NCBI GenBank assembly: GCA_965242965.1
Contig: OZ251518.1
Span: 2,048,001-2,112,000 of the forward strand
DNA length: 64,000 nucleotides
Direction of reading: 5' to 3'
From: Candidatus Poribacteria bacterium
GTDB taxonomy: Bacteria; Poribacteria; WGA-4E; WGA-3G
Both the position numbers and the translations under genes were made by a program. How positions within the stretch are numbered: the stretch's first letter is position 1; each line of letters opens with the position of its first letter. The notes below the pieces were generated by a model, which had not been told where the DNA came from, made no database searches, and saw only the letters and a list, made by a program, of their open reading frames with translations. This document shows positions 2,523 to 59,166 of this stretch, one piece after another.

Positions 2523-3906
2523 CCCGCTAGATTTCCGATACTACGGCGGCGACGCGGCATTTATGAAACGTCTCCTGCCCTACGTCTCCGAGGCAGGCTA
2601 TGTCACCTATCAGGCGAAAGTGGAGGCGGCACTGGTGCGCACCCTCGCAGACTACGGTGTCTGCACCGCAAAAATCGCCGATGAAGTGGAGCAAGCAGTT
2701 GCACTTGTCACGGCGGAGGAAGTCTACGAGGAACAACGCCGTATCCGGCACAACATCCGTTCTCTCGTCAATGTTATCCGGCGAAACATCAGTCTCGAAG
2801 CGCGTCCTTACGTCCACTTGTTCGCGACATCTGCGGACATACTTGATACCGCCACCGCTTTGCGGTTCAAAGAGCTCACCGAAAACGTTATCATTCCCGA
2901 CTTGGTGGCGTTTGAGAAGCAACTCATAGTGCTGGCGCGGGAACACGCGGAGACGGTGCAGATCGGCAGGACGCACGGGCAACACGCGGAACCAACTACC
3001 TTCGGCTATGCGATGGCACTCTACGTCAGCCGCATCGGCACGCGTATTGAGAAGATTTCTGAGGCGGCTCAAAATCTGCGCGGACAATTTTCAGGTGCAG
3101 TCGGCGCGTTTAACGGACTTGCCCTGATTCACGAACACCCGGAACAAATCGAGGTACATTTCCTCGCGCTCCTCGGGCTGAAGCCGTCCGATACGCACAC
3201 TTCAACGCAGTGTGTGGAGCCGGAGTTCATCTCGGATTTAGCGTATCAAGTTACGGCGGCTTACACCGTGCTTGCCAACTTCGCCGATGATATGCGGCAC
3301 CTCTACCGCACCGAAATCGCGGAGGTGGGGAGGAAGTATAACCCGCAACTTGTCGGTTCATCGACGATGCCGCACAAGGTAAACCCGGAGGCGTATGAGA
3401 ACGTTAAAAGCCTCTGGAAAGCGTTTGTGCCACGGATGCAGACTGTCTTCATGGATAGCATCCTTGAGCACCAACGCGACCTGACGAATTCTGCCTCAAG
3501 CCGTTTTGTGACAGAATTGTTCACGGCGTTTGATTACGCTATCTATCGGCTGCGGCGCGCGGTAGAGGAGATGGATGTCAAAGCGGAGAATATGCGCCGA
3601 AACCTGGCACTCAGCGCGGAGGATACGATTGCGGAACCTATCTATCTGTTGATGGCATATTATGGATTTCCTGATGCCTATGAGCATACCCGTGCGTTGA
3701 TTGCGCAGGTGCACGAGACCGGGAAGAGCCTCTCCGCGCTTTTGTGGGAAGATGAGACGTTCCGGCCATTCCTTGACAAACTGACAGATTCGCAGCGCGA
3801 GGCACTCCGCGCACCGACAAATTATATCGGCGCGTCCGTGCAAAGGACGCACGCCACATGCGATGCGTGGGAAAAACGGATGGAAGCGTTTGGAAATGTC
3901 CCTTAG
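2500..3906 (+). CDS. purB: Adenylosuccinate lyase
   Basis: SPLDFRY N-terminus, GRTHGQHAEPTTFG, fumarate-lyase signature GSSTMPHKVNP. Confidence 0.9.
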   Translation: MELYEAVSPLDFRYYGGDAAFMKRLLPYVSEAGYVTYQAKVEAALVRTLADYGVCTAKIADEVEQAVALVTAEEVYEEQRRIRHNIRSLVNVIRRNISLEARPYVHLFATSADILDTATALRFKELTENVIIPDLVAFEKQLIVLAREHAETVQIGRTHGQHAEPTTFGYAMALYVSRIGTRIEKISEAAQNLRGQFSGAVGAFNGLALIHEHPEQIEVHFLALLGLKPSDTHTSTQCVEPEFISDLAYQVTAAYTVLANFADDMRHLYRTEIAEVGRKYNPQLVGSSTMPHKVNPEAYENVKSLWKAFVPRMQTVFMDSILEHQRDLTNSASSRFVTELFTAFDYAIYRLRRAVEEMDVKAENMRRNLALSAEDTIAEPIYLLMAYYGFPDAYEHTRALIAQVHETGKSLSALLWEDETFRPFLDKLTDSQREALRAPTNYIGASVQRTHATCDAWEKRMEAFGNVP

Positions 3907-4105
3907 CCCGCATCGCGGGGAAACCTATCCCTCGCCCATCGTTTCATAGTTTCTCGAGACCGGGAGGTCTCTCCTACTGGGACGCATTGGCCTGTCCCTC
4001 GCCAGCATCTCGTAGTTTCGTAGTGCGAGGGCCTGTCCCTCGCAATCGTCTCATCTTCTAATTTCGTAGTGCGAGGGCCTGTCCCTCGTGCTTTGCCTCT
4101 CGCCA
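3905..4105. repeat. Degenerate GTAG-hairpin repeat cluster
   Basis: TCGAGACCGGGAGGTCTCTCCTAC and two copies of CGTAGTGCGAGGGCCTGTCCCTCG. Confidence 0.75.
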
Positions 4106-4131
4106 ATCTAATACGACGGGACAGGCACGCT

Positions 4132-5421
4132 ATGTTTGACATTGTCTACTTGACGCGACGAGGCTTCTGTCTAATCAGACGATACCCACGCTTTTGGCTG
4201 ACGGTAGCCTTCCTGCTCACCTTCGCCCTCGGTATCTGGACGGGACGCGCAGCGCGTTTCAATCAAATCAAGCGATACGTTACCTCCTATCTGGACTTCT
4301 CCCGGGGTGAGGTAACGCAGCGCATCGCGCCCGGCATCGTGCATCGGCAGCGGCAACATAAAGGCGTGCTTACCAACATTCTTGAAGTGTCTCCAAGTGC
4401 TGCGAAGCTCCGTCCTTATCGCGCTTTAGATGCTGGCATCGGCACCGAAACCTTACGTTCATTGGCGCGGCGGCACAAGGCACTCGCGGCGATAAACGGC
4501 GGCTACTTTGAGATGGTAGGCACCTTCCGCGGCGAATCAGTCGGCGCGCTGAAGATTGATGGCGAATGGCACAGCGAACCCGAACAAGGTAGAGCCGTCA
4601 TCGGATTCAGAACCGTCAACGGCAAAATTGAGACATTCATCGACCGGATTGTTCTCAAAATAACACTCATTCTCCCGAACGGCGAGATATTGCCAATTGA
4701 CGGCATCAACCGAAGCCGTGGCAGAGACGAATTGGTGCTTTATCGTTCGCACTTCCACAGCGTGACGTTGACAATGTCCGATGGCGTTGAGGTAGTCGTG
4801 AAAAATGGCGAGGTTATTGGCATTTACGATAAAACCGGTAGCCTGCGTATCCCCGCCGATGGCTACGTCCTCTCCGCGAGCGGGAAGAAGCAGGCGGCAC
4901 TTTTAGCGAATCTGTCTGTTGGAGATGCCGTGCGGATTCGCGAGACAGTCATTCCTGAACGCGTCGGCGACAGCGCGCTGTGGGCCAGTTGCGAACACAT
5001 TATCGGCGGCGGCCCGCTGTTACTGCGAGACGGCGCAGTGCCTACAACGAAAGCGTATCAAGCCGAAGGGTTTGACAAAGCGTTCCATAGTTTCTGGCAC
5101 CCGCGCACCGCGATCGGGAAAAAGGCGGATGGCACCCTGCTTTTTGTAACCATAACCGCCGCGGATGCCGGGGTTAGACGCGGCGTGACGTTACCTCGCC
5201 TCGCTGAATTGTTTGCCGAATGGGGGGCGACAGACGCGCTCAATCTTGATGGAGGCAACTCCTCTATGCTCATCATCCGGGATAAGGTAGTGAGTGTTAA
5301 CTCACGAGAGAAACCCAGGAAGACTGCCCGCGGCAACCGCCGGATGCGGCCTTTACCCAAGCAACAGGGCCGCGCGATTGCGGATGCACTGTTGATTTTT
5401 GAGCAGGATTTACAAGATTAG
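4132..5421 (+). CDS. Phosphodiester glycosidase (NAGPA) family protein
   Basis: N-terminal TM segment, AAINGGYF, HPRTAIG, ALNLDGGNSS motifs; start codon uncertain. Confidence 0.85.
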   Translation: MFDIVYLTRRGFCLIRRYPRFWLTVAFLLTFALGIWTGRAARFNQIKRYVTSYLDFSRGEVTQRIAPGIVHRQRQHKGVLTNILEVSPSAAKLRPYRALDAGIGTETLRSLARRHKALAAINGGYFEMVGTFRGESVGALKIDGEWHSEPEQGRAVIGFRTVNGKIETFIDRIVLKITLILPNGEILPIDGINRSRGRDELVLYRSHFHSVTLTMSDGVEVVVKNGEVIGIYDKTGSLRIPADGYVLSASGKKQAALLANLSVGDAVRIRETVIPERVGDSALWASCEHIIGGGPLLLRDGAVPTTKAYQAEGFDKAFHSFWHPRTAIGKKADGTLLFVTITAADAGVRRGVTLPRLAELFAEWGATDALNLDGGNSSMLIIRDKVVSVNSREKPRKTARGNRRMRPLPKQQGRAIADALLIFEQDLQD

Positions 5422-6345
5422 CACGATTAGCAAGAGATGAGCAGGATTTGCAGGATTTACAAGATGAGCAAGATGAGTCCGTAGCGCGGGGGCCTGTCCC
5501 CCGCGATCGCACGCGTGCCCCAGAGACCGTAGTTCGGGATCGCCTGATCCCGAACGGATGCATAGCGAAGAGAATCCCTTCCGGGCCCGTAGCGCGGGGG
5601 CCTGTCCCCCGCGAGCGCACCCGCGAAAAACATCTCTTCAGGTCCGTTAGGACTAAAATCCTTCCTGGCCCGTAGCGCGGGGGCCTGTCCCCCGCGAGCG
5701 CACCCGCGAAAAACATCTCTTCAGGTCCGTTAGGACTAAAATCCTTCCTGGCCCGTAGCGCGGGGGCCTGTCCCCCGCGAGTGCCCGACCCGCGCGAAAA
5801 CTGCACGCAGACCAAGGCCATTTCCCTCTCAATCGCGGCACGGCGAGGGACAGGCCCTCGCCCTACGGTGAAACGGAGACGGCCTCATCTACCGTAGCGC
5901 GGGGGCCTGTCCCCCGCGATTGTTCACGTGAAAAACATCTCTTCAGGTCCTTTAGGTCCTGCATGTCTATAGTATCCCCGATCCAAAAAAAAGCTAAGGT
6001 CCTTTAGGTCCTTAATATGCAGCAGAAAACATTAAGGTCCTACGGACCTTGAGGGGTATTGCATCGGCGTGCTATAGACATTAAGGTCCTACGGACCTTG
6101 AGGAGAACCCTTCCTGGCCCGTAGCGCGGGGGCCTGTCCCCCGCGATCGCCCGACCCGCACGAAAAACGCACGCAGACAAACCGTTTCCCTCCCGACCGA
6201 GGCATGGCGAGGGACAGGCCCTCGCCCTACAGTCATCGGCACGTTTTTCCCCCGCGATCGCCCGATCCGCGCGAAAAACGAACGCCAACCAACGCCATTT
6301 TCCCGACCGAGGCATGGCGAGGGACAGGCCCTCGCCCTACGGTAT
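5400..6345. repeat. Intergenic mosaic: 9-bp CAGGATTTA-type tandem repeat, GTAG hairpins, AGGTCC element
   Basis: Multiple CGTAGCGCGGGGGCCTGTCCCCCGCG and GGCGAGGGACAGGCCCTCGCCCTAC copies plus an AGGTCC module at about 5930-6105. Confidence 0.9.
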
Positions 6346-6439
6346 AACACCGCGGTCTCCCGCGCCGGCAGGATGGATTCTGGATTCTAAAAAAATTTAA
6401 CTAGCAAAGAAAAAAGCAATGTGATATACTGTTCATGTC

Positions 6440-8557
6440 ATGAACATTTTTAAACACATCAGTCTCCTGTCCTGCATCGCTTTTATCATCGGATGCGGGG
6501 TGCCGAACAACCCATACCCGAAAGCCGAACAGGCACAGGAAATCTATTACAGCACGTTCAGCGAAGAGCCGAAACACTTCGACCCGGCCGTATCCTACAG
6601 CTCGGACGAATATCGGTTTATTCAGCAGATTTACGAACCGCCGCTGCAATACCACTACCTGAAACGGCCTTATGAACTCATGCCGTTAACGGCAGAATCG
6701 GTGCCGATACCGCGCTATTTTGATGCCGATGGACGCGCCTTGCCAACCGATGCCCCGGCTGATTCGGTTGCACGCGCCGTTTATGAAATTCGCATCCGAC
6801 CGGGGATAATGTATCAGCCGCACCCCTGTTTCGCGAAGGATGAAAACGGCGAACGGCTCTATCACAACGTCACGAAAGCGGACGTGAAGGGTTTCACCGA
6901 GATCAAAGATTTCCCGAGGACAGGCACGCGCGAACTCATCGCGGCGGATTATGTCTACCAACTCTTGCGCATGGCAGACCCGAGCGTCTCCTGTCCCATC
7001 TTCAGCACGTTAGAGGACTATATCCTCGGCATGGAGGCGTATTCCGATGCGTTGAAGCAAAACGTTAGCGACACGCCGTTCCCCGGTGTGGAAATCGTCG
7101 ACAGGTATACCTATCGGGTTATCCTCAAAACCAAGTATCCGCAGTTCGTCTATTGGCTGGCGATGCCGTTCTTCTCGCCGATGCCGAAAGAGGCAGTCAA
7201 TTTCTATAACCAGCCTGCGCTGAAGGAACGGAACATCACCCTTGACAGGTTTCCTGTCGGCACGGGCCCTTATCGCATTGAGACGCTTGTGCCATACAAA
7301 GAGATTATCCTCGTGAAAAACGAGAATTTTCGGGTGGAACGGTATCCCTCCAGCGGCGCGCCCGGCGACAGGGAAGCGGGCTTGCTGGACGATGCCTGGC
7401 ACATCGTCCCGTTTATGCCAAAGGTTGTCTACAAATTAGAGAAGGAGTATATCCCGCGCTGGAACAAATTCCTGCAGGGATATTACGATAGTGCCGGCAT
7501 CTCATCGGATACGTTTGATAGTGCCATCGCCTTTGACGATACCGGTGACCCGAGGGCGAGCGACTTGCTGCAAGCGAAGAACATCGTTTTGCGCACGAGT
7601 GTTAGCCCGACGACGATTTACCTCGGCTTCAACATGCAGGACGATGTCGTCGGCGGTTATACGGCGGATAAACAGAAACTGCGTCAAGCCATCTCAATTG
7701 CGTTGAATTACGAAGAATACATTGAAATCTTTTTGAATGGGCGCGGCGTGATTTCGCAGAGCCCCATCCCACCCGGCATCTTCGGTTACGAAGAGGGAGA
7801 AATCGGCATTAACCCGTATGTCTACAATTGGGATGCCCAGACTGGATTGCCCGTGCGGAAATCGTTGGAGGCGGCGCGTCAACTCCTCGCGGAAGCCGGT
7901 TATCCCGATGGCCTGGACAAAGACGGCAATCCGCTCGTCGTCCATTTTGATAACGCGTGGACATCTGCCGGTGCGACACCGCGCTTGGCGTGGATGCGCC
8001 GCCAGTTCGAGAAAATCGGCATCACGATGGAAAACCGCACCACCGATTACAACCGATTTCGCGACAAGGTGCAGAACGCGAACTTCCAAGTCATTTCGTG
8101 GGGATGGCGCGCGGACTACCCCGATGCAGAGAACTTCATGTTCCTCCTCTACGGGCCGAACGGGAGAGCGACATTCGGCGGCGAAAACACGGCGAACTAT
8201 GATAACCCCCAATACAATCGGCTGTTTGAACAGATGAAAAACATGGAGAATTCGCCGGAACGGCTGGAAATCATCCGACAGATGAAACGGGTGCTGCAAC
8301 AGGATGCGCCGTGGGTGTTTACCTATCATCCCGTCTCTTTTGGGCTTTCGCATCAGTGGGTGAAAAACAGCAAACCGAGTCCGTTAGGTGGAAATACGCT
8401 CAAATATCTCCGCGTGGATGCATCGTTGCGCGCACAAAACCGAGCGGCGTGGAATCAGCCGCTGACCTGGCCGCTGTGGGCATTTTTCGGCGTGCTCCTC
8501 CTCGGCACTATTCCAGCGGTAATCACCGTGTGGAAACGAGAACGCGGGACACATTAA
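6440..8557 (+). CDS. ABC transporter substrate-binding lipoprotein (family 5, peptide/nickel type)
   Basis: Lipobox-like IIGC, PKHFDPA, PVGTGPY, LRQAISIALN, GWRADYPDAENF; C-terminal TM anchor. Confidence 0.9.
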   Translation: MNIFKHISLLSCIAFIIGCGVPNNPYPKAEQAQEIYYSTFSEEPKHFDPAVSYSSDEYRFIQQIYEPPLQYHYLKRPYELMPLTAESVPIPRYFDADGRALPTDAPADSVARAVYEIRIRPGIMYQPHPCFAKDENGERLYHNVTKADVKGFTEIKDFPRTGTRELIAADYVYQLLRMADPSVSCPIFSTLEDYILGMEAYSDALKQNVSDTPFPGVEIVDRYTYRVILKTKYPQFVYWLAMPFFSPMPKEAVNFYNQPALKERNITLDRFPVGTGPYRIETLVPYKEIILVKNENFRVERYPSSGAPGDREAGLLDDAWHIVPFMPKVVYKLEKEYIPRWNKFLQGYYDSAGISSDTFDSAIAFDDTGDPRASDLLQAKNIVLRTSVSPTTIYLGFNMQDDVVGGYTADKQKLRQAISIALNYEEYIEIFLNGRGVISQSPIPPGIFGYEEGEIGINPYVYNWDAQTGLPVRKSLEAARQLLAEAGYPDGLDKDGNPLVVHFDNAWTSAGATPRLAWMRRQFEKIGITMENRTTDYNRFRDKVQNANFQVISWGWRADYPDAENFMFLLYGPNGRATFGGENTANYDNPQYNRLFEQMKNMENSPERLEIIRQMKRVLQQDAPWVFTYHPVSFGLSHQWVKNSKPSPLGGNTLKYLRVDASLRAQNRAAWNQPLTWPLWAFFGVLLLGTIPAVITVWKRERGTH

Positions 8558-9544: not shown

Positions 9545-10212
9545 AGATCGGGCCCAACTCTGTAGTTCGGGAGGCATCGGGCCCACCTCTGTAGTTCGGG
9601 AGCACCTGCTCCCGAACGGTTCAGGAGCAGGCGCTCCTGAACTACAGGGCCTGGCGCGCGAACGCTGGCGAGGGGAACCCGCTCGCCAGCGCGTGTGGCA
9701 TGCGAGGGCCCACGCCCTACGGGGAAGGGGACGGCGTTTTTAACCGTAGCGCGGGGGCCTGTCCCCCGCGATCGCAGCATGGCGAGGGACAGGTTTTCCC
9801 ACAGCCCTACGTGAAGGGACGGCGTTTTTTTCACCGCAGCGTGGGGGCCTGTCCCCCGCGAGTTTCCGGTAGACCGCAGCACGGCGAGGGACAGGCCCTC
9901 GCCCTATGTGAAGGAGACCGTTTTTTACCGTAGCGCGGGGGCCTGTCCCCCGCGATCGCAGCATAAGGGGCGGCGTTTTTTTATCGTAGCGCGGGGGCCT
10001 GTCCCCCGCGATCGTTCGACCTGCGCGAAAATCGTCCATCGACCAAGGCCATTTCCCTTCCGATCGAGGCATGGCGAGGGACAGGCCCTCGCCCTACGTG
10101 AAGGGACGGCGTTTTTTCACCGTAGCGCGGGGCCCTCGGATGCCACACGCGCATCTGAGCGGGTTTCCCCCGCGATCGCTGCACGGCGAGGGACAGGCCC
10201 TCGCCCTACGTG
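9545..10212. repeat. Intergenic GTAG-hairpin mosaic
   Basis: GTAGTTCGGGAGC..GCTCCCGAAC hairpins followed by several inverted pairs of CCTGT-loop hairpins. Confidence 0.9.
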
Positions 10213-11109: not shown

Positions 11110-11645
11110 TCTCGATGCCTTCCCGGTAGGAGAGCCCTCGGGTCTCGATGTTCCCGTAGCGCGGGGGACAGGCCCCCGCGAGGCTCAAGAACCGTTTTTT
11201 TCACCGCAGCGCGGGGGCCTGTCCCCCGCGAGGGCTCAAGAACCGTTTTTTTTAGCGTAGCGCGGGGGCCTGTCCCCCGCGAGCTCTCTCGTGCACCAGG
11301 GCACGGCGAGGGACAGGCCCTCGCCCTACGGTGACAGGACGGCGTTTTTTTCACCGCAGCGCGGGGGCCTGTCCCCCGCGAGGGCTCAAGAACCGTTTTT
11401 TTTAGCGTAGCGCGGGGGCCTGTCCCCCGCGATCTCCATCGTCACGATGTGTATTTCTCCCACTGTAGTTTGTGATCGCCTGATCACAAACAGGTCAGGA
11501 TCAGGCGATCCTGACCTACAGAGGTGGGCCCAATGCGCTCCGGTAGGAGGGACATCCCTGTCCCGATATGAAACACATCGAGACCAGGAGGTCTCTCCTA
11601 CGGGGAAAACGCTTGCAGCGAGACCGGGAAGGCTCTCCTACGGGG
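11110..11645. repeat. GTAG-hairpin mosaic, left copy of an about 480-bp direct repeat
   Basis: Module order and linker sequences co-linear with 17815-18280. Confidence 0.85.
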
Positions 11646-14184: not shown

Positions 14185-15080
14185 ACCGTAGGAGAGACCT
14201 CCCGGTCTCGATTTCCCGGTAGGAGAGACCTCCTGGTCTCGATTTTTCCCGTAGCGCGGGGGCCTGTCCCCCGCGAGCGTTAGATTGCGCCGACGATGGC
14301 GAGGGACAGGCCCTCGCCCTACGATGACAGGGACCGTTTTTTACCGTAGCGCGGGGGCCTGTCCCCCGCGAGCACCGATGAAGGGGGTGACGTTTTTTTT
14401 CGTAGCGCGGGGGCCTGTCCTCCGCGAGCGTTAGATTGCGCCGACGATGGCGAGGGACAGGCCCTCGCCCTACGATGAGGGACAGGCGTTTTTTTCACCG
14501 TAGCGCGGGGGCCTGTCCCCCGCGATCTCGGATGAAGGGAGTGGCGTTTTTTTCCCGTAGCGCGGGGGCCTGTCCCCCGCGAGCGCACCCGCGAAAAACA
14601 TCTCTTCAGGTCCTTTAGGTCCTGCATGTCTATAGTATCCCGCCGACAGAGAAGAGCCCTAAGGTCCTTTAGGTCCTTAATAGGCACCGGACACATCGCA
14701 GCAGAAAAGATTAAGGTCCTACGGACCTTGAGGACTTGGCGGGCTCCGCGTGCTATAGACATTAAGGTCCTACGGACCTAAGAGGCGTTTTTTATCGTAG
14801 CGCGCGTTGGATTGCGCCGACGATGGCGAGGGACAGGCCCTCGCCCTACGGTAACGAGGAAACAGCCTTGCAAACCGTAGCGCGGGGGCCTGTCCCCCGC
14901 GATCACACGCGTACCCGAAAGCACGGCGAGGGACAGGCCCTCGCCCTACGGTGACGAGGGGCTTTCTGCCGCCCTATTGCATCGAGACCGGGAGGTCTCT
15001 CCTACCGGCAATTCCCCGTTTTTTCAACGGCGCGCGGGAGCCTGGCACCGCGACGTTGAACCATTTATGAAACCCCCTCG
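14185..15080. repeat. Repeat mosaic separating the DUF1156 and DUF499 genes
   Basis: GAGACC-type, CCTGT-loop and AGGTCC modules; ends in TATGAAACCCCCTC overlapping the DUF1156 stop codon. Confidence 0.9.
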
Positions 15081-17814: not shown

Positions 17815-18280
17815 TCCCCGTAGGAGAGACCTCCTGGTCTCGATGCCTTCCCTGTAGGAGAGACCTCCTGGTCTCGATTTGCCCGTAGCGCGGGGGTCTG
17901 TCCCCCGCGATGGCTCAAGAACCGTTTTTTTTATCGTAGGGCGGGGGTCTGTCCCCCGCGATCTCTCTCGTGCACCAGGGCACGGCGAGGGACAGGCCCT
18001 CGCCCTACGGTGAGGGGGCATTTTTTTACCGTAGCGCGGGGGTCTGTCCCCCGCGATGGCTCAAGAACCGTTTTTTTTCGTAGCGCGGGGGCCTGTCCCC
18101 CGCGATCGCCATTGTCATGATGTGTGTTTCCTCCTCTGTAGTTCGGGAGCACCCGCTCCCGAACGGATCAGGATCTGGCGATCCTGACCTACAGAGGTGG
18201 GCCCAATGCCTTCCGGTAGGAGGGACATCCCTGTCCCGATATGAAACACATCGAGACCAGGAGGTCTCTCCTACCGGGGA
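17815..18280. repeat. GTAG-hairpin mosaic, right copy of the about 480-bp direct repeat
   Basis: Co-linear with 11110-11605, including GGCTCAAGAACCG and CTCTCTCGTGCACCAGGGCACGGCGAGGG linkers. Confidence 0.85.
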
Positions 18281-19204: not shown

Positions 19205-19690
19205 GGTAGGAGGGACATCCCTGTCCCGATTGCAGGTAGGAGGGACATCCCTGTCCCGATACGCAACCGGTAGGAGGGACATCCCTGTCCCGATTGCGGT
19301 AGGAGGGACATCCTTGTCCCGATTGCAGGTAGGAGGGACATCCTTGTCCCGATACGAAAAATCGAGACCAGGAGGGCTCTCCTACTGGCACCCCTCTGTA
19401 GTTCGGGAGCGCCTGCTCCCGAACGGTTCAGGAGCAGGCGCTCCTGAACTACAGGCGTGAGGAGCATCCCACATCGAGACCAGGAGGTCTCTCCTACGGG
19501 GGAGGCATCGAGACCGGGAGGGCTCTCCTACTGGCACCCCTCCGTAGTTCGGGAGCGCCCGCTCCCGAACGGTTCAGGAGCAGGCGCTCCTGAACTACAG
19601 GCGTGAGGAGCATCCCACATCGAGACCAGGAGGTCTCTCCTACCGGGCTGATGCCTTCGCGGTAGGAGGAACATCCCTGTCCCGATACTG
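19205..19690. repeat. Tandem GGTAGGAGGGACATCCCTGTCCCGAT x5 followed by a duplicated about 140-bp hairpin block
   Basis: Five copies at 19205-19353 with 3-8 nt linkers; block near 19361-19497 repeated near 19508-19643. Confidence 0.9.
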
Positions 19691-21073: not shown

Positions 21074-21124
21074 GCGGGTATGATAGCAGAATTGGAGATA
21101 TAAAGCAAATTTGTGTCGTGGAAC

Positions 21125-21470
21125 GATCGCGAGGCCAAGAAACCTCTCACACACCGTAGGGCGGGGGCCTGTCCCCCGCCGGGCTCGGGTCGCCGAACGA
21201 TCGCGAGGGACAGGCCCTCGCGCTACGGGACAGGGGACAAGAAACCTTTCACACACCGTAGGGCGGGGGCCTGTCCCCCGCCGTGCCTCGGATAATCGAA
21301 AACGCTCTTCATGACCTACGATCGCGAGGGACAGGCCCTCGCGCTACGGTGGGGGCGGAAACCTCTCTCATACCGTAGGGCGGGGGCCTGTCCCCCGCCA
21401 GGCCTCGGTCGAGGAAAACGCTCTTCACAAACAACGATCGCGAGGGACAGGCCCTCGCGCTACGGCCCGA
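21125..21470. repeat. Three tandem REPIN-like inverted hairpin pairs
   Basis: 3 x [CGTAGGGCGGGGGCCTGTCCCCCGCC - linker - CGCGAGGGACAGGCCCTCGCGCTACGG]. Confidence 0.9.
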
Positions 21471-21497
21471 GACACGGTGAAAGTTTTACAATTTTTC

Positions 21498-24205: not shown

Positions 24206-24345
24206 TGGGAGACAAAATTTCGGTTTTCAGCGAGCCCGGAAAATGGCGAGGGACAGGCCCTCGCCCTACGGTAAAAGGAAACATTGAGGCATGGCGAGGG
24301 ACAGGCCCTCGCCCTACGGTAACGGGAGACATTGATGCACGCGGA

Positions 24346-24765: not shown

Positions 24766-24954
24766 TTCAGATTCCTCCTTTGTGTCCTCTGGCAACAGTT
24801 TTCAGCAAGTGCCAGAACCAAAGTTATCCTGACGTTACTTTTTATGAACACCTGAGTCGTTAAGAAGTTACGCGAATTTCTATAGTGCAAAAAAAATAAC
24901 TTGAAACGGTAGGCGCGCTTTCCAACGGCGCGCTGCTATCCATAGGAGAAACCA

Positions 24955-26489: not shown

Positions 26490-26870
26490 GTCTGGCGAGG
26501 GAAACTTGTCCCTCGCCAGATATCGGGTTTCTCGCTATCCCTTACTATAGACATGCAGGTCCTACGGACCTGAAGAGGTTTCCTTAGAGGCACAGCATGT
26601 CCCGCGATGAACCCTCCTTCTCCTGCAAATCCTGCTTCATATCTGTAGGTCAAGATCGCCCGATCTTGACCTGTTCGGGATCAGGCGATCCCGAACTACT
26701 TAGGTTCATCCTGCTTTAGCCAATTAGCATCGCGGGGGACAGGCCCCCGCGCTACGTTCTAAGCGACGTTTTTCGGTTGAATCGAACACTCGCGGGGGAC
26801 AGGCCCCCGCACTACGAAAAAAGTGGGTTTCCGTATGAGCCTTTAGGTCCTACGGACCTGAAGAGGTTTC
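26490..26870. repeat. Degenerate repeat mosaic between convergent genes
   Basis: CTATAGACATGCAGGTCCTACGGACCTGAAGAG, GTAGGTCAAGATCGCCCGATCTTGAC, CGCGGGGGACAGGCCCCCGCGCTACG. Confidence 0.8.
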
Positions 26871-29257: not shown

Positions 29258-29316
29258 GTTTGTATCCAAGAAGTGATGGCGCGCTGGGAAAGCGCGCCTA
29301 CCGGATTTTGACAGAA

Positions 29317-30224: not shown

Positions 30225-30800
30225 GTCGCGGGGATAAGGCATCGCGCTACAGTAAAAAAAACGTGCCGTTTACCGTAGGGCGAGGGCCTGTCCCTCGCCA
30301 TGCATCGATCGGGAGGGAAATGGCCTTGGCCGGCGTGCGTTTTTCGCGCGGATCGAACGATCGCGGGGGACAGGCCCCCGCGCTACGGTAAAAAAACGTG
30401 CCGTTTACCGTAGGGCGAGGGCCTGTCCCTCGCCGTGCATCGATTGGGAAGGAAATGGCCTTGGCCGGCGTGCGTTTTTCGCGCAGGTCGAACGATCGCG
30501 GGGGACAGGCCCCCGCGCTACGGGCCCGGACGGGGGCCTACTCGCCATGCGCCGCTCGGGAGCAGGCGCTCCCGAACTACGGTCTTCTGCCCCTAATCCT
30601 GTGAAATCGTGATAATCGTGTAAATCCTGCTCGTCTCTAGGGCACACGGGCGATCGCGGGGGACAGGCCCCCGCGCTACGGGCCAGGAAGGGGTCCTCCT
30701 CTCCATGCGCCCGTTCGGGAGCAGGCAAGCCCGAACTACAGTCTCCTGCCTCTAATCCTGTGAAATCTTGTAAATCTTGTAAATCCTGCTCATCTCTTGG
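30225..30800. repeat. Intergenic GTAG-hairpin mosaic with 9-bp AAATCTTGT-type tandem repeats
   Basis: Duplicated about 135-bp REPIN-like unit, then hairpin plus AATCCTGTGAAATC blocks. Confidence 0.88.
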
Positions 30801-33165: not shown

Positions 33166-33429
33166 TGAGGATGTTTCATAACTCCGTTTCGGTAGTTATC
33201 CCCTTTGGGGAAGGACGAATACCAGAATCCATCGGGCCCACCTCTGTAGTTCGGGATCGCCCGATCCCGAACAGGTCAAGATCAGGCGATCTTGACCTAC
33301 AGGGGTAAGGCACTCTGACAGCCAAACGCATGGCGAGGGACAGGCCCTCGCCCTACGTGAAGGGCGGCATTTTTTCCCTATCGCGGGCCCCTGTCACCGC
33401 GACGTTGAGCGATTTATGAAACACCCTCA
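33166..33429. mobile_element. Putative MITE-like element with 15-bp imperfect terminal inverted repeats enclosing GTAG hairpins
   Basis: TGAGGATGTTTCATA ... TATGAAACACCCTCA; no ORF inside. Confidence 0.55.
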
Positions 33430-36783: not shown

Positions 36784-37505
36784 GAGGATGTTCATATCTT
36801 GATGGATTTCCGGTAGGAGAGACCTTCCGGTCTTGATGCAAGCGGTTTCCCCGTAAGAGAGACCTCCTGGTCTCGATTATCCCGTAGGGCTTTTCTCCAT
36901 CCGTAGCGCGGGGGGCCTCGGATGCCACACGCGCATCCGAGCGGGTTTCCCCCGCGAGCGTTGGGGTGCGCGTGCACGCACGATGGCGAGGGCCTGTCCC
37001 TCGCTCTACGGTAACGCACGCCGTTTTTTCGGACGCATCGTTTTAGGTCTTTTAGGACCTACATGTCTATAGAAAAACAGATCTACCACCGTTTTCAAGG
37101 TCCATTAGGACCTTAATAAAACCCGCGCGGACCTGGCAAAACCTATTAAGGACCTAAAGGACCTTAGAATTCTTCGTAGCCTCACGTACTATAGACATTA
37201 AGGTCCTACGGACCTAAGATACGTTTTTTTCGTAGCGCGGGGGACAGGCCCCCGCGATCGCCATCGTTCCGATGTGTGTTTCCGCTTCTGTAGTTTGTGA
37301 TCGCCTGATCACAAACGGTTCAGGATCAGGCGATCCTGAACTACAGAGGTGATGCGGTCTGACACCAAAACGCATGGCGAGGGACAGGCCCTCGCCCTAC
37401 GTGAAGGGGAAGCGTTTTTTTCACCGCAGCGCGGGGCCCTCGGATGCCACACGCGCATCCGAGCGGGTTTCACCGCGACGTTGAGCGCAATATGAAACAC
37501 TCTCA
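36784..37505. mobile_element. Repeat mosaic bounded by the same inverted termini as 33166-33429
   Basis: GAGGATGTTCATA at the left end, TATGAAACACTCTCA at the right end; internal GAGACC, CCTGT-loop, AGGTCC and GATC hairpins. Confidence 0.55.
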
Positions 37506-41099: not shown

Positions 41100-41950
41100 A
41101 AGCATAGCGCGACGATAATCCAGACATGGCGCGGGACAGGCCCGCGCCCTACAGTAAGCGGCACGTTTTTTCACCGTAGCGCGGGAGACAGGCCCCCGCA
41201 ATCGCCCGCAGAGCGCGCGACGATGATCCAGACATGGCGCGGGACAGGCCCGCGCCCTACAGTAAGCGGCACGTTTTTTCACCGTAGCGCGGGAGACAGG
41301 CCCCCGCAATCGCCCGCGCGAAAACATCTCTTCAGGTCCTTTAGGTCCTGCATGTCTATAGTATCCCGCCGACAGAGAAGAGCCCTAAGGTCCTTTAGGT
41401 CCTTAATAGGCAGCGGACACATCGCAGCAGAAAACATTAAGGTCCTACGGACCTTGAGGACTTGGCGGGCTGCACGGGCTATAGACATTAAGGTCCTACG
41501 GACCTAAAGGCAAACCCTTTCCTGGCCCGGAGCGAGGGAGCCGCGCAGGCGAGCGGGTTTCCCCCGCGAGCACCCGCGCGAAAACATCTCTTCAGGTCCT
41601 TTAGGTCCTGCATGTCTATAGTATCCCGCCGACAGAGAAGAGCCTTAAGGTCCTTTAGGTCCTTAATAGGCAGCGGACACATCGCAGCAGAAAACATTAA
41701 GGTCCTACGGACCTTGAGGACTTGGCGGGCTGCGCGGGCTATAGACATTAAGGTCCTACGGACCTAAAGGCAACCGCTTTCCTGGCCCGTAGCGCGGGGG
41801 CCTGTCCCCCGCGTGCTCCATCGTCATGATGTGCAGTACCCCCTCTGTAGTTTGTGATCGCCTGATCACAAACGGTCGGGATCAGGCGATCCCGAACTAC
41901 AGAGCCTGGCGCGAGAACAATGGCGAGGGACAGGCCATCGCCCTACGGGC
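41100..41950. repeat. Repeat mosaic with tandem duplications, including two AGGTCC elements
   Basis: About 110-bp unit duplicated near 41105-41315; about 260-bp unit duplicated near 41310-41790. Confidence 0.92.
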
Positions 41951-47096: not shown

Positions 47097-47361
47097 GCGT
47101 GTTGAGGGACAGGCCCTCAACCTACGCGCAAGAAGCATTTTGTCAGAGGGAGCATGTTGAGGGACAGGCCCTCAACCTACGCGCAAGCAGCACTTTGTTA
47201 GAGGGAGCATGTTGAGGGACAGGCCCTCAACCTACGCGCAGGCAGCATTTTTCCCGGTAGGAGAGACCTCCAGGTCTCGATTTTACAAACCCTCAACCTA
47301 CGCGCAGGCAGCACTTTGTTAGAGGGAGCGTGTTGAGGGACAGGCCCTCAACCTACGTGCA
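47097..47361. repeat. Tandem array of the GTTGAGGGACAGGCCCTCAACCTAC hairpin variant
   Basis: Four full copies (47101, 47156, 47211, 47332) and one partial, 55-bp period in the first three. Confidence 0.92.
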
Positions 47362-51545: not shown

Positions 51546-52060
51546 GGTGTTTCATATTTCGATGCGTTCGGTAGGAGAGACCTCGGGGCTCGATTTCCGG
51601 TAGGAGAGACCTCCTGGTCTCGATGTTCCCGTAGCGCGGGGGCCTGTCCGCCGCGAGCTCCATCGTCAAGAGGGGCGTTTTAGGTCCTTTAGGTCCTACA
51701 TGTCTATAGATACACGTGTCGTCCCATTTTCAAGGTCCTTTAGGTCCTTAATAAAAAACACGCGCGGACATGGCAAAATCTATTAAGGACCTAAAGGACC
51801 TTAGGGTTCTTCGCAGGTGGCGTGCTATAGACATTAAGGTCCTACGGACCTAAGAGACGTTTTTTCATCGTAGTGCGGGGGCCTGTCCCCCGCGAGCGTT
51901 GGATTGCGCGTGTACGAACGATGGCGAGGGGAACCCGCTCGCATGCGCGTGTGGAAACCTGCGAGGGCCCAAGCCCTACAATGAAGGGGGCTTTCTGCCG
52001 CCGCGGCCCCGGGGGCGCGCCGCCCTATTGCATCGAGACCAGGAGGTCTCTCCTACCGGG
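51546..52060. repeat. Composite repeat element, reverse-orientation relative of 58858-59158
   Basis: Left end GGTGTTTCATATTTCGATGCGTTCGGTAGG.. and right end ..CCCTATTGCATCGAGACCAGGAGGTCTCTCCTAC both recur inverted at 58858-59158. Confidence 0.85.
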
Positions 52061-53164: not shown

Positions 53165-53166
53165 CT

Positions 53167-54699: not shown

Positions 54700-55050
54700 C
54701 CGTTTCCCCCGTAGGAGAGACCTCCCAGTCTCGATTTCCCCCAGTAGGAGAGACCTCCCGGTCTCGATGCAAACGATGTCCCGTGTAGGAGAGACCTCCT
54801 GGTCTTGATTTCGTCCGCGCAATCCAACGCTCACGGGGGAAACCCGCTCGGATGCGCGGATGGCATCCGAGGGCCCCCGCGCTACGGTGAACAAAACGCC
54901 GCCCTTCACGTAGGGCGAGGGCCTGTCCCTCGCCATCGTTTTGCTGCCAGACCCCTTCACCCCTGTAGGTCAGGATCGCCTGATCCTGACCTGTTTGTGA
55001 TCAGGCGATCACAAACTACAGAGGGGGAAACACATCGTTCCCGCTACGGT
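54700..55050. repeat. Intergenic GTAG-hairpin mosaic
   Basis: Three GTAGGAGAGACC..GGTCTC units, then CCTGT-loop and GATC hairpins. Confidence 0.88.
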
Positions 55051-55069: not shown

Positions 55070-55939
55070 TCAGCGTCCCAGGTCCATTTCATAACGGAAA
55101 GTGATACCGGGCAAACTCAGCATCTCATCTAAATTCGGCATCTGTTCGAGACCTAAGAGCTGCTCCAGCAACGATGCTTTTTTCTCTTTGCGCACAATCC
55201 TGGGCGTTCCCTCAATGCCGGCGAGTTCTGCGGCGACTTCAATGGCATCGGGAAGGTTGCCGAGTCTGTCCAAGAGTTTCAAATCTAGTGCTTGCTTCCC
55301 GGTGAAAATGCGTCCATCGGCGATGGTGACGACTTCATCGCGCGTTAAATGCATGCTTCGTGCAGTGAAGATAGTGTCAACAAACTGATTGTAGACATCG
55401 TCCACCGTGCCTTGCAACACTGCACGTTCTTCTTCCGTCATCTCGCGAAAAGAGGAGCCAGTGTCCTTAAACGTGCCGCTCTTAATCACTTCGTGTTCCA
55501 ATCCGACTTTGTCGTATAACCCCTTCATCCGTATAAACTGCATAATCACGCCGATACTGCCGGTGAGTGTGCCAGGGTTCGCGACGATGGTATTCGCCGC
55601 GCAGGCGAGGTAGTAACCGCCCGATGCCGCCGTGCCGCCCATTGAGGCGACAATCGGCTTGTCTAACTTCTCCAATTCGGCGTAAATCTCTTGCACGGGA
55701 GCAACGCTGCCGCCGGGGGAATCAATTCGGAGGACAAGTGCCTTGATACTCGGGTCATCGCGGTAGGCATGGATGAGTTTAATCGTCGCATCCGAACGCG
55801 AGATAATGCCGTCAATGTCTAGCACCGCCACCTTCTCGCCAATCGGCGCGCCGCCTATCATGGAACGGAAAATTATCACGAAGAAAAATAGCCCGATGAT
55901 AACGCCTAAGATGATAAAAGTTCGTTGTTTCTTTGTCAT
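55070..55939 (-). CDS. sppA: Signal peptide peptidase SppA (36K type)
   Basis: LRIDSPGG, AASGGYY, TGSIGVI, ADGRIFTG. Confidence 0.93.
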   Translation of the reverse strand: MTKKQRTFIILGVIIGLFFFVIIFRSMIGGAPIGEKVAVLDIDGIISRSDATIKLIHAYRDDPSIKALVLRIDSPGGSVAPVQEIYAELEKLDKPIVASMGGTAASGGYYLACAANTIVANPGTLTGSIGVIMQFIRMKGLYDKVGLEHEVIKSGTFKDTGSSFREMTEEERAVLQGTVDDVYNQFVDTIFTARSMHLTRDEVVTIADGRIFTGKQALDLKLLDRLGNLPDAIEVAAELAGIEGTPRIVRKEKKASLLEQLLGLEQMPNLDEMLSLPGITFRYEMDLGR

Positions 55940-56020
55940 TTTTGTTTTTCCTATCAGATGAACGCAGTCCGGGCTGATTCTGGGAGAACCGCGCACGGAA
56001 ATCCACCCTTACAATTGCTG

Positions 56021-56683
56021 CTACCGGCCGAAAAGGACTGTCCAAAACGTTTTTAACAGCCACCCCAGATCAGCGGTGAGGCTATGTGTTGCGACATAGC
56101 GAAGATCCAAGGCGAGTTTCTGCGGCATCAATTCCGTGATGTAGTAGTGCTCCGGATTTGCGCGCGCCTTGAGTTTCTCTTCCTCATGCCGATTGGCAAG
56201 CTGCGAGGGCCCTGTCATCCCCGGCTTCACCTGAAGCACCTGTTTTTGCGCTGCCGTGTAGTGTTGAACGTAGATAGGTGCCTCCGGACGCGGTCCGACT
56301 AGGCTCATCTCTCCTCTGATGACGTTGATTAAGTTCGGCAGTTCGTCCAACTTCGTCCATCTTAACAACCTGCCGATGCGCGTGATGCGCGTATCCCGAT
56401 AGGTAGTCAGACTGCATCCGATTTTGTCGGCGTTCACCACCATCGTTCTGAACTTATACATCTCAAAAAGCACCTCGTCCTTTCCGACCCGTTTCGCTTT
56501 GTAAAACACGGGCCCGGCGGATTGCATTTTCGCCAGCACACACCCAAGTAGAAAGAATGGTGACAGCAGCACGAACCCGATTGTCCCGAAAAGGATATCA
56601 AACGCACGTTTTTGCCGGATTTGGCCTCGCGACAGGGAGGGTTTGCCTATTAGAAGATGGATTCCGTTCTGAACGTCTGGCAT
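56021..56683 (-). CDS. Bacterial sugar transferase (polyprenyl-phosphate phosphoglycosyl transferase)
   Basis: KRAFD, YKFRTM, LDELPNLINVIRGEMSLVGPRP, KPGMTG. Confidence 0.93.
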   Translation of the reverse strand: MPDVQNGIHLLIGKPSLSRGQIRQKRAFDILFGTIGFVLLSPFFLLGCVLAKMQSAGPVFYKAKRVGKDEVLFEMYKFRTMVVNADKIGCSLTTYRDTRITRIGRLLRWTKLDELPNLINVIRGEMSLVGPRPEAPIYVQHYTAAQKQVLQVKPGMTGPSQLANRHEEEKLKARANPEHYYITELMPQKLALDLRYVATHSLTADLGWLLKTFWTVLFGR

Positions 56684-56737
56684 GCCTATTATCCGAAAGT
56701 TAAGAAAAGGTAGAATCGTGAGAGGCTTAATGTCTGT

Positions 56738-58687
56738 CTATAGAGACGCTCTCATTTCCCTGCTCTCTTCCTCAGCGTCGGCGCGCTTTTCCGTGGGGAA
56801 CTGAATAATTTCAGACGCGCTGCTTCCATCGTCTTCCTTCTGGAACGCGCGGTTTGGTTCGTAAGTCGGAACGAGTGCTTGGAACTTGTCGACAATCCCC
56901 TCCGTATCCAACGCATCGGCGAGTTGCGAGAGTTCGTCGATGCCGGTGAGCAGTTGGTGTTCCTCAATTTTTTCCAGTTGCGCGACGAAGATGCGTTGAT
57001 GCTTCGTCGCCGTCACCCCTTCCTGGGGTGTGAGCAATTCTTCATACAATTTTTCGCCCGGTTCTAACCCGGTGAAAGCGATTTTGATGTCCCTGTCTAC
57101 TTCAAGTCCGGATAGGCGAATCAGGTCTTGCGCAAGATCGAGGATTTTAATCGGTTCGCCCATGTCTAACATCAGGATTTCGCCGCCGTTGCCCATGGCA
57201 CCGGCTTGTATGAGCAGTTGGACCGCTTCCGGAATCGTCATGAAGTAGCGCGTCGCCTCCCGATGCGTGACAGTAACGGGCCCGCCTTTCGCAATCTGCC
57301 GTTTGAAATTCGGTAGCACACTCGCCCGGCTGCCGATGACGTTGCCGAACCGCACTGCAATGAACCGCGTGCCGTTCAGTCGCGCCTTACACTGAATCAG
57401 TTTTTCGGTGACACGTTTGGAGGCACCGTAGACGCTCGTCGGGTTCACGGCTTTATCGGATGAGACGAGGATGAACGCCTCAACGTGGTGTTTTATCGCC
57501 GCGTCAATCAGGTTCTGCGTGCCGAGGATGTTATTCTTCACCGCCTCATCAGGGTGATTCTCCATGAACTTAACATGCTTGTGCGCGGCGGCATGGAAGA
57601 TAATATGGGGCCGGTATTTTTGGATAATCTGCGAAACCTTTGAGTTGTCGCGAATGTCCCCGATAATAACAGCACGGTTGAGTGCCGGTTCAGATTCACG
57701 GAGCTCTATATCTGTATGGTAGAGGCTATTCTCGCCACGTCCAAAGAGCATGAGGAGCTCGGGCTCCAGTTTGGCTACTTGGCGACAGAGTTCGGAGCCT
57801 ATCGAACCGCCCGCGCCGGTTACCATCACACGTTTGCCAGAGAGGTATTTCGATACCTCAGCGATGTCCATCTGCGAGGTAGAACGGTTCAGCAAATCTT
57901 CAAACCGCACTTCTCGGATGTGGTTGATACTGGCGCGTCCCTCAAGAATGGCGTGAATATTCGGCACGATGCGAAACTGACAGCCGCGGTATTCGCACTG
58001 GCGGATGATGTCCCGAATTTTTCCACCGGGCGCGGACGGAATAGCGATGACGACTTCCTGTATCTCGCGCTTCCGGGCAATGTAGGTTAAGTCACGCGTC
58101 GTCCCAAGCACTTCCAATCCGGCGATGCTTTTGCCAACCTTCCGGGCATTATCGTCAATGAAACCTACGGGGAGGTATCCCTTCGCCGGGTGTTCGCGTA
58201 GCGCGCGAAGCACACTGATGCCTGTCGCCCCGGCTCCAACGATGAGAACTTTGGTGTGCGGTTTTCGCGCACTCTCCTTGCGCGGTTTGCGCTTGTCCCG
58301 CGGTTTGCCACTCTCTACAATTTGAAAGGAGAACTTGGCAAAACCGAGCATCGCGAAGTTATAGAGCCCATCAATAAGAAAAGGCATCCATGCGAAGTTC
58401 AGCAGCAAGGCGAATGCGATAAGCAAGGCAGTTGCAATGCTAATTGCGCCGGCTAACGCACGAAACTCCTGCACAGCGGCATACCGCCACATCGGTTTGT
58501 AGAGGTTAAAGCCGAGCAGCAGGCTGACGCGGACTATCGTCACAACAGCTGCGAGGGTGACGTACGTCACGTCTGCAGGGAAGCGCGCGAGGAGTTGCAA
58601 CGGTGGCGCGGGTTGGGCTAACAGATTGGCGCCCAATTGCCGACACGTATAATAGGCCAATAGAAACGCTAGATTCACGAGGAGCAC
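56738..58687 (-). CDS. CapD/PglF-like nucleoside-diphosphate sugar 4,6-dehydratase
   Basis: TGAGGSIGSELCRQ, HAAAHKHV, SSDKAVNPTSVYGASKR, VRFGNVIGS; true start uncertain. Confidence 0.92.
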   Translation of the reverse strand: MLLVNLAFLLAYYTCRQLGANLLAQPAPPLQLLARFPADVTYVTLAAVVTIVRVSLLLGFNLYKPMWRYAAVQEFRALAGAISIATALLIAFALLLNFAWMPFLIDGLYNFAMLGFAKFSFQIVESGKPRDKRKPRKESARKPHTKVLIVGAGATGISVLRALREHPAKGYLPVGFIDDNARKVGKSIAGLEVLGTTRDLTYIARKREIQEVVIAIPSAPGGKIRDIIRQCEYRGCQFRIVPNIHAILEGRASINHIREVRFEDLLNRSTSQMDIAEVSKYLSGKRVMVTGAGGSIGSELCRQVAKLEPELLMLFGRGENSLYHTDIELRESEPALNRAVIIGDIRDNSKVSQIIQKYRPHIIFHAAAHKHVKFMENHPDEAVKNNILGTQNLIDAAIKHHVEAFILVSSDKAVNPTSVYGASKRVTEKLIQCKARLNGTRFIAVRFGNVIGSRASVLPNFKRQIAKGGPVTVTHREATRYFMTIPEAVQLLIQAGAMGNGGEILMLDMGEPIKILDLAQDLIRLSGLEVDRDIKIAFTGLEPGEKLYEELLTPQEGVTATKHQRIFVAQLEKIEEHQLLTGIDELSQLADALDTEGIVDKFQALVPTYEPNRAFQKEDDGSSASEIIQFPTEKRADAEEESREMRASL

Positions 58688-58857
58688 ATCAAGAACGATG
58701 GATGAGCTCCATTTTAGTTTTGACTTCTGTATTTTGGGCCTCCAATTTGCTTGCCATAAACAGGCCGGGGTTTTCCAACGGCACTGTTATCGGGCATGTT
58801 CTTCGTTAATTACACCGAATTCATCTCTATAATGCGGACAGGTCTCAATAGTGATGT

Positions 58858-59158
58858 CCCCTGTAGGAGAGACCTCCTGGTCTCGATGCAATAGGGCGGC
58901 GCGCCTACCGGGGCAGCGACGGCAGAACCCCCTCTTCATCGTAGGGCGAGGGCCTGTCCCTCGCCACGCCTCGCGCTACGGAAAAAACGTCTCTTGTTCT
59001 CTTCAGTCCGTAGGACCTAAAACGCCACCTCTTAACGATGGAGATCGCGGGGGAAACCCTCTCGGATGCGCGTATGGCATCCGAGGGCCCCCGCGCTACG
59101 GGAACATCGAGCCCCGAGGTCTCGCCTACCGAACGCATCGAAATATGAAACACCCTCA
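58858..59158. repeat. Composite repeat element ending in TATGAAACACCCTCA
   Basis: Inverted relative of 51546-52060. Confidence 0.85.
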
Positions 59159-59166
59159 ACTTAGTA

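Follow-up and report, generated by a model that had tools for sequence, protein, structure and literature searches.

The window considered here is the whole 64,000-nt stretch of Poribacteria DNA whose first lines stand above (G000:C1:2,048,001-2,112,000, G000 being a genome of 5.70 Mb in two contigs). Its intergenic regions are filled with short hairpins that carry an unpaired GTAG at one foot. These hairpins form a dense and diverse GTAG-tagged system of repetitive extragenic palindromic sequences (REPs), resembling REP doublets forming hairpins (REPINs) and bacterial interspersed mosaic elements (BIMEs). The existence of such a system, proposed in the initial annotation, is confirmed across the genome: hairpin cores amount to 205,562 nt, or 3.63% of the chromosome and 15.4% of its DNA outside open reading frames (ORFs), 1,600 of the 3,128 intergenic gaps hold at least one copy, and the copies fall into three structural superfamilies, one of which lies beside the only gene for a REP-associated tyrosine transposase (RAYT) that the genome encodes.

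The superfamilies emerged when the GTAG hairpins were sorted by geometry and loop. Family I, which unites types A and E of the initial annotation, has an 8-bp GC-rich stem and a CCTGT loop, with 4,264 strict copies and 197 that are loop-inverted. Its commonest variants are CGCGGGGG (1,552 perfect copies), GGCGAGGG (1,423), CGCGAGGG (373) and GGCGGGGG (120), and its rarer compensated stems include GTTGAGGG and GGCGCGGG. Family II (earlier type D; 1,566 copies) has a 9-bp stem and an RCCY loop. Family III (earlier types B and C; 1,585 copies) has two unpaired bases after the foot, a stem of 6-7 bp and a TCCY loop. A further 867 GTAG hairpins are of minor types, the earlier G among them, and 191 chromosome sites match GTAGGCGCGSTT. 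The stems had been called unrelated, which does not hold, as A and E share their geometry and the CCTGT loop, and B and C share another geometry and the TCCY loop. We count 157 distinct stem variants in family I, 227 in II and 48 in III, the common ones fully compensated. Each family also has an extended foot: C-GTAG in family I (C at -1 in 98%), CT directly 5' of GTAG in 1,404 of the 1,566 family II copies (90%), and CCG-GTAG with a 3' GAT in family III. At the hairpin apex, family I has GCCTG, family II RCCYG and most copies of family III TCCYG.

Within the window we find 31 clusters of strict copies from 3,956 to 60,263, 23 of them holding at least two copies, so that an earlier estimate of about 20 clusters was fair. 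Type G copies are indeed present at 24,909 and at 29,279-29,301. The main features, in window coordinates, are as follows (MITE, miniature inverted-repeat transposable element).

3956-4088: REP cluster; a minus-strand family III copy at 3966-3977, with TGCGAGGG-stem variants of family I at 4020 and 4066
5481-5918: cluster of 7 REPs; family I (CGCGGGGG on the plus strand, GGCGAGGG on the minus strand) and family II at 5529-5554; within it, at 5577-5781, an 83-nt unit repeated 2.5 times at 99% identity
6121-6340: cluster of 3 REPs; family I in a 110-nt tandem unit
9591-10209: two adjacent clusters; family II inverted doublet at 9591-9645 (3-nt spacer) and family I copies, one with its loop swapped for a 34-nt hairpin insert (about 10122-10180)
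11126-11601: cluster of 8 REPs; families I and I-inv, a family II doublet at 11465-11519 and family III copies
14188-15005: two clusters (9 and 4 copies) with a MITE-like element between them (about 14590-14790); family III tandem pair (14188, 14219), alternating family I pairs, family III at 14994
17820-18274: cluster of 11 REPs; family III, family I and a family II doublet at 18138-18192
19205-19647: cluster of 11 REPs; GAGGGACA-type family III copies in a 30-nt tandem array, followed by two copies (97% identity) of a 146-nt unit that holds a family II doublet and family III REPs
21156-21463: three family I hetero-doublets, GGCGGGGG facing CGCGAGGG
24245-24317, minus strand: two family I copies (GGCGAGGG) in 48-nt tandem
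24909-24935, plus strand: type G copy (GTAG-GCGCGC-TTT...GCGCGC)
26645-26815: half composite; family II doublet at 26645-26699, then two family I copies
29279-29301, minus strand: type G copy
30275-30679: cluster of 6 REPs; a 135-nt unit with family I hetero-pairs, present 2.1 times at 95% identity, and family II at 30555-30580
33246-33356: half composite; family II doublet and one family I copy
37232-37400: full four-hairpin composite; I, II, inverted II, inverted I
41128-41260, minus strand: two family I copies with the compensated GGCGCGGG stem; 108-nt unit present twice at 99% identity
41789-41946: family I copy and family II doublet (41847-41900)
47101-47356, minus strand: 55-nt tandem array with four strict copies of variant E of family I (GTTGAGGG/CCCTCAAC stem, CCTGT loop)
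51571-52056: family III tandem pair, family I copies and a family III copy
54711-55019: family III tandem triple, family I pair and a family II doublet at 54965-55019
58863-59129: family III and family I copies, at the end of the span first flagged

The motifs named in the initial annotation sit where it placed them and are far more frequent than chance predicts. Allowing at most one mismatch, GTAGGAGAGACC has 26 matches in the window against 0.10 expected, a number reached in none of 100 shuffles; allowing at most two, GTAGCGCGGGGG has 85 against 7.99. The association of hairpins with a GTAG foot, likewise claimed, is borne out at both scales. When all 256 tetramers in the window were ranked by whether a hairpin begins within 0-3 nt downstream, GTAG came first (117 of 408 sites; median tetramer, 12), and the runners-up CGTA, TAGG and CCGT are shifted readings of the same foot. 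On the chromosome a hairpin follows 8,479 of 33,190 GTAG sites (25.5%), compared with 1.6-5.4% for four control tetramers of the same composition. Starting instead from the 6,347 perfect chromosome hairpins with stems of at least 8 bp, GTAG occurs in 3,866 of their 12,694 flanks, the next tetramer being CGAT with 1,083. The second contig (38 kb) is poor in REPs, with a hairpin after 7 of its 207 GTAG sites.

Along the chromosome the copies gather in 2,519 clusters that together span 7.1% of its length. Judged against a crude set of long ORFs that covers 80.8% of the chromosome, 15.9% of family I, 11.6% of family II and 22.0% of family III copies lie inside these ORFs. Gaps that contain REPs have median lengths of 420-620 nt, compared with 57-171 nt for those without. 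We find no strand or replication-orientation bias, plus and minus copies of every family being about equal in each 400-kb bin; the GC skew does not point clearly to an origin.

The initial annotation reported that stem changes are compensated on the opposite arm, and a search that recognised half-sites by foot, 5' arm and loop only, and then checked the 3' arm for complementarity, bears this out across many stem variants. The 3' arm is perfectly complementary in 3,596 of 4,240 family I half-sites (85%), 1,190 of 1,653 in family II (72%) and 1,554 of 2,131 in family III (73%). The sequences between hairpins are far less well preserved. In composite arrays found by their linker alone, cores are perfect in 100 of 143 cases for family I and 130 of 175 for family II, compared with 31 of 202 perfect linkers. 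This linker-anchored test replaces a comparison of composites chosen by their cores, which gave 98.8% core and 65.1% linker identity and was circular. As the hairpin cores are far better conserved than the linkers, we conclude that the hairpins are under constraint.

The arrangement of copies is structured in some respects and irregular in others. Family II occurs mainly as inverted doublets with GTAG outward and a spacer of 0-6 nt (552 doublets, accounting for 1,104 of the 1,566 copies). Inverted pairs of family I also have set spacers, yet many of its copies are tandem or single. The preferred distances are 22, 10 or 70 nt tail-to-tail and 23-27 nt foot-to-foot, and the linkers of these pairs have conserved ends and variable centres. 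As claimed earlier, two different variants usually face each other: of the tail-to-tail pairs, 173 of the 226 spaced by 22 nt and 91 of the 105 spaced by 10 nt set CGCGGGGG opposite GGCGAGGG. The two families are further joined in a recurrent composite of four hairpins (in order I, II, inverted II, inverted I). A family I copy in the same orientation lies on both sides of 84 of the 552 family II doublets and on one side of 245, so that 329 have one no more than 40 nt away, and the linkers are homologous. The foot-to-foot linkers of family I are roughly palindromic, with an A run and a T run (CTAC-GGTGAAAAAAC...GTTTTTTTCACC-GTAG; for example at window 9700-10120 and 14320-14560).

This alternation of two REP types in opposite orientation, with set linker types, is BIME-like. 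BIMEs of E. coli alternate Y and Z REPs. The alternation of two stem variants and the preferred linker lengths are shared with them; the differences are that the hairpins here are perfect and free of bulges and that the linker sequences are others. BIMEs are described as regularly spaced REPs of alternating orientation (PMC2817692). Likeness to the REPIN-RAYT systems of Pseudomonas and Neisseria (Bertels & Rainey 2011, PMC3116915; bioRxiv 10.1101/2021.07.10.451892) lies in the predominance of inverted doublets (in family II), a single-copy RAYT that does not jump and lineage-specific families, as those sources describe them; a difference is that the arms of a doublet here are usually different stem variants.

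Such order and conservation could also arise if the host maintained the hairpins without any transposase, as structural or regulatory elements (RNA stabilisers, terminators or protein-binding sites) that spread by tandem duplication and recombination. Hairpins conserved far above their linkers, with pairing held by compensated changes, would fit this explanation, as would the tandem duplications in the window, whose units of 83-151 nt are 90-99% identical, several arrays being recent at 95-99%. On the chromosome, however, few copies lie within tandem units at least 90% identical (152 of 4,264 in family I, 12 of 1,566 in II and 18 of 1,585 in III, lower bounds from a gap-free comparison). We therefore rejected tandem duplication as the chief source of copies, since it is real in the window and accounts for at most 3.6% of chromosome copies by the same gap-free test. 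A role as intrinsic terminators was likewise rejected: between 4,000 and 23,999 of the window there are 23 terminator-like sites against 24.3 expected, and few of them are REPs. Nor do the hairpins favour gaps of one kind, as they occupy convergent (65%), tandem (48%) and divergent (56%) gaps alike. Two further observations, the absence of conserved REP content at orthologous gaps and the tight pairing of RAYTs with REPs in relatives, the latter pointing to an enzyme, are described below. Families without a RAYT of their own persist undecayed in this genome, which again speaks for host upkeep. Weighing both sides, we regard host upkeep as quite improbable as the main explanation.

The initial annotation found no RAYT in the window and supposed that several paralogues are encoded elsewhere. 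The first statement stands, and the second must be reduced to a single gene. A whole-genome search with Pfam Y1_Tnp (PF01797) returned two matches, the RAYT gene P0001 (C1:3,147,502-3,147,963, minus strand, 154 residues, outside the window) and a fragment of an IS605-like TnpA. P0001 scores 120.6 bits on NF047646 (REP-associated tyrosine transposase, cut-off 80), compared with 29.8 on the IS200 model NF033573 (cut-off 55), and aligns to E. coli TnpA-REP (PDB 4er8, E 1.6e-4) from just upstream of HLH, the alignment covering the Y-x-x-x-N-P tyrosine region. About 16 family II copies flank it within about 600 nt, on both sides, and within the same distance there is no family I or III copy on either side. 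The locus is thus a classical REPtron, for family II. Whole-genome searches with PF01797, NF047646, P0001 and the two Y1 proteins found in the same genus (P0002 and P0003, below) detected no second intact RAYT in G000, and no homologue of P0002 or P0003 other than P0001. G000 therefore encodes exactly one RAYT. As this gene has family II copies alone beside it, G000 holds families I and III as orphans.

At the RAYT locus, around C1:3,147,963 (L002 1417-2523), an open frame of 368 codons extends across the family II array and on into the RAYT gene of 154 codons. REP arrays create long spurious ORFs of this kind, which could inflate gene calls. A possible RAYT relic beside family III at C1:3,934,077-3,934,250 (L004) was rejected as a chance match (E 0.77 with P0001, stop codons, no match to P0003).

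The second PF01797 match belongs to an IS605-like element at C1:3,123,891-3,127,127 (L001), with an intact 408-residue TnpB and a TnpA fragment broken by two TGA codons. Its presence, together with other MITE-like elements among the REPs, raises the question of whether the hairpins are the ends or remnants of ordinary insertion sequences (IS; IS200/IS605 or DDE-type MITEs), or form a CRISPR-like array. The structure of the units argues otherwise, as they are single hairpins of 22-26 nt with a one-sided tag and have no terminal inverted repeats around a body. None of families I-III occurs at the IS605-like locus. The copies lie at irregular distances and in irregular orientation, and unique spacers of one fixed length are absent. 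We consider any of these origins very improbable.

Other small elements lie among the REPs. One is MITE-like, about 190-260 nt long (window 5925-6115, 14590-14790 and 41301-41802), with AAGGTCC-GTA-GGACCTT palindromes and a GTCTATAG motif; GTAGGACCTTAATGTCTATAG matches 156 chromosome sites, 6 of them in the window, and the GTAG of this element sits in a loop and not at a foot. Some family I hairpins have a long insert in place of the 5-nt loop, at 317 chromosome sites, and in 244 of these the insert is exactly 34 nt (CCCTCGGATGCCAY..GCATCCGAGCGGGTTT). The 34-nt insert has an 8-bp stem of its own, also with compensated variants (CTCGCATG/CATGCGAG), and resembles a further miniature hairpin element residing inside REP loops. 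At window 5400-5473, at the 3' end of the ORF at 4069-5421 and just ahead of a REP cluster, 1.9 copies of a 38-nt unit follow each other in tandem (83% matches).

Comparison with two further genomes of the genus, G108 and G152, revealed large differences in copy number. Exact pattern counts, both strands summed, are as follows (G152 is 86% complete).

Family I: G000, 4,107 copies; G108, 491; G152, 930
Family II: G000, 1,365 copies; G108, none; G152, 89
Family III: G000, 1,559 copies; G108, 283; G152, 78

G151 and G040, from other genera of the same family, have no copies of families I, II or III, and among the five genomes tested the families are restricted to the genus. Pairing differs as well: in an 800-kb sample of G108 the 3' arm is perfect in 59 of 132 family I half-sites (45%) and 37 of 73 in family III (51%). 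The initial annotation had suggested comparing orthologous intergenic regions, and REP content proves to differ completely among the three congeners, with none in common at orthologous gaps. Where the window has six family I copies (21,109-21,491), the orthologous gap of G108 measures 50 nt and has no complete REP; where it has the clusters at 9591-10209, G108 has 94 nt and no REP. The reverse also occurs, with 9 nt in the window opposite an array of 631 nt in G108. We interpret this lack of shared content to indicate that the arrays turn over quickly.

RAYT genes are widespread in the phylum, with matches in 135 of 151 sampled genomes, 100 of which exceed the curated NF047646 cut-off. For RAYTs of the P0001 score class, GTAG hairpins lie beside the gene (within about 600-1,000 nt) at 16 of 20 loci, and at 27 of 29 loci in another set. 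These loci mostly have one stem type each, which differs between genomes; families I and II occur at none of the loci in either set. The nearest relative of P0001 is just 55-56% identical to it, and a separate related-locus search with P0001 gave only distant relatives in Acidobacteria, at 29-32% identity. A second RAYT class (about 200 bits on NF047646; L005-L034) is common in the phylum and absent from G000. We rejected this class as the source of the missing enzymes, since a GTAG hairpin lies near only 11 of 30 of its loci and families I, II and III lie at none.

The closest candidates for enzymes of the orphan families are found in G108. Its P0003 is a RAYT (127.6 bits on NF047646) that is 56% identical to P0001 and is flanked by family III REPs (GAGAGACC, GAGGGACA). 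The syntenic place in G000 has neither a RAYT nor family III, and holds an array of family I and II copies. The other gene, P0002, is a divergent Y1 gene of 179 residues whose product shares 26% identity with P0001 and scores 29.8 bits on PF01797 (cut-off 23). REPs of the family I type surround it on either side, one of them supplying the TAG stop codon of the gene with its GTAG foot. In the third genome of the genus, G152, we found no Y1_Tnp gene; this carries little weight, given 86% completeness and 210 contigs.

P0001 with its family II copies (G000:C1:3,146,158-3,148,526) and P0002 with family-I-type REPs (G108:C1:4,790,613-4,792,528; L003, L060, L108) stand in a shared gene neighbourhood, in which the two genomes show some local rearrangement. 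RAYT genes of relatives are often 2-26 kb apart. The presence of two non-orthologous genes at one neighbourhood may have come about by a swap, or by the loss of different members of an ancestral RAYT cluster. A gene that flanks the P0001 locus ends in a domain with many paralogues, and synteny comparison across genera is ambiguous.

Looking across the analysis, we think it likely that the REPs of all three superfamilies are non-autonomous single-stranded DNA elements that are cut and copied by a RAYT (the HUH/Y1 enzyme TnpA-REP). Because the RAYTs of relatives nearly all carry their own GTAG-REP stem type, each superfamily would have been amplified by a RAYT of its own, recognising the folded hairpin (its loop and shape) together with the GTAG foot on single-stranded DNA. 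G000 would later have lost the enzymes of families I and III, whose very large populations would then have stayed behind as orphans. Selection for a hairpin that can fold, acting at the level of copying or of the host, would keep stems paired while linkers drift, and local tandem duplication would contribute a minority of copies.

The features on which this reading draws match the superfamily of GTAG-tagged REPs, and its REPtrons, known from the literature (Di Nocera et al. 2013, PMC3733652; Nunvar et al. 2010, PMC2817692). As described there, its members have a one-sided unpaired GTAG, GC-rich perfect stems of 6-9 bp and short loops; compensated sub-families, several families per genome and an intergenic location; head-head, tail-tail and tandem dimers as well as clusters; and a GTAG that supplies a TAG stop, with the RAYT gene flanked by its own REPs. 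The two unpaired bases between foot and stem of family III recall the published GTAG-1 and GTAG-2 (PMC3733652). Poribacteria are not among the phyla listed for the superfamily in these accounts. The 25-nt variants here reach 1,552 and 1,423 perfect copies, compared with 37-427 per REP in the Stenotrophomonas survey (PMC2817692). Where a species has more than one GTAG family, it is reported to possess repeat-specific REPtrons too (PMC3733652). Unlike those multi-family species, G000 has one REPtron for three families: no RAYT lies beside family I or III, and matching genes were seen only in G108.

The REPtron Sm of Stenotrophomonas maltophilia (Corneloup et al. 2021, PMC8266576) offers the nearest biochemical parallel. 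Both sets of REPs are perfect palindromes, with an 8-bp stem and a 3-nt loop there and 6-9 bp and 4-5 nt here. The group-3 TnpA-REP enzymes described in that work act on perfect-palindrome REPs, require GTAG in order to cleave, depend on individual bases of the loop, accept altered stems and cut at CT (PMC8266576). Here the loop of each family is conserved and the stems vary, which matches recognition by loop bases, and the CT next to the family II foot is the published group-3 cleavage dinucleotide.

Several points weigh against amplification of each superfamily by its own RAYT. The cutting and copying steps are ones that we infer from sequence, and the congeners share only about 80-87% DNA identity in flanking genes, so that no clean empty and filled sites or junctions can be read. 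G000 is rated 94.66% complete, which makes a missed gene conceivable, though the assembly has only 2 contigs. P0002 may be regarded as a candidate family I enzyme only, as its 57 bits on NF047646 fall below the RAYT cut-off of 80. A further point is the state of the orphans. Families I and III are better paired in G000 (85% and 73%) than the RAYT-linked family II (72%), and they are 8.4 and 5.5 times commoner there than in G108, where the matching genes persist. Such a pattern is contrary to the decay reported after RAYT loss: in Pseudomonas and Neisseria, REPs decay once the RAYT is gone (bioRxiv 10.1101/2021.07.10.451892), whereas the orphans here are larger and better conserved than in the relative that has kept the enzymes. 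Three reasons for their good state are possible: recent losses after a burst of copying, take-over by the resident RAYT, or host selection on hairpins.

Take-over (a 'RAYT host switch') would mean that P0001 now drives families I, II and III by way of the GTAG foot and the CCYG motif at the apex. It would explain why orphan families show no decay and why all three families are expanded in G000 relative to G108 (4,107 to 491, 1,365 to none and 1,559 to 283). The apices GCCTG, RCCYG and TCCYG share the motif in question; the coupling of families I and II in composites with homologous linkers, and the 56% identity of P0001 to the family III RAYT of G108, point the same way. A take-over of this kind has been raised for Pseudomonas in a preprint (bioRxiv 10.1101/2021.07.10.451892). 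Set against this are the REPs next to P0001, which are of family II only, and the extended feet, which differ among C-GTAG, CT-GTAG and CCG-GTAG. Group-3 enzymes are described as sensitive in vitro to single loop bases and co-evolved with their own REPs (PMC8266576), and in relatives each RAYT has its own stem type. On balance we judge that P0001 is unlikely to drive all three families. A broader proposition is that the resident family II RAYT took over families I and III via the GTAG foot and CCYG apex, keeping all three alive at about 1.5 copies per kb as the largest and best-preserved populations of the genus, or else that REPs thrive for long periods without a transposase; this we hold to be possible, if doubtful. 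Amplification of each superfamily by its own RAYT, with later loss of two of the enzymes in G000, is the reading that we prefer.

A full-text search returned no literature on Poribacteria with REPs, RAYTs or REPINs, leaving aside the supplementary files of REP surveys, which we did not open and where a listing is possible. What this genome adds is an extreme REP load, an imbalance of one RAYT to three families when compared with its congener, and two non-orthologous Y1 genes with different REP families at one neighbourhood.

REPs and RAYTs are the best case of a domesticated transposase in the long-term company of its own small repeats, and this genus offers a sharp comparison. On one side, G000, with its one RAYT (for family II), has all three families in very large populations that are well paired; on the other, G108 has a family III RAYT and a candidate family I enzyme, with 5-8 times fewer copies of families I and III, poorer pairing and no family II. 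Enzyme specificity, take-over and decay are directly testable here with three small proteins and three oligonucleotides. The REP load, at 3.6% of the chromosome in cores and 7.1% in clusters, helps to explain the poor short-read assembly of genomes in the group. If take-over or persistence without a transposase should prove true, the genus would be a natural test of whether REPs need a RAYT of their own.

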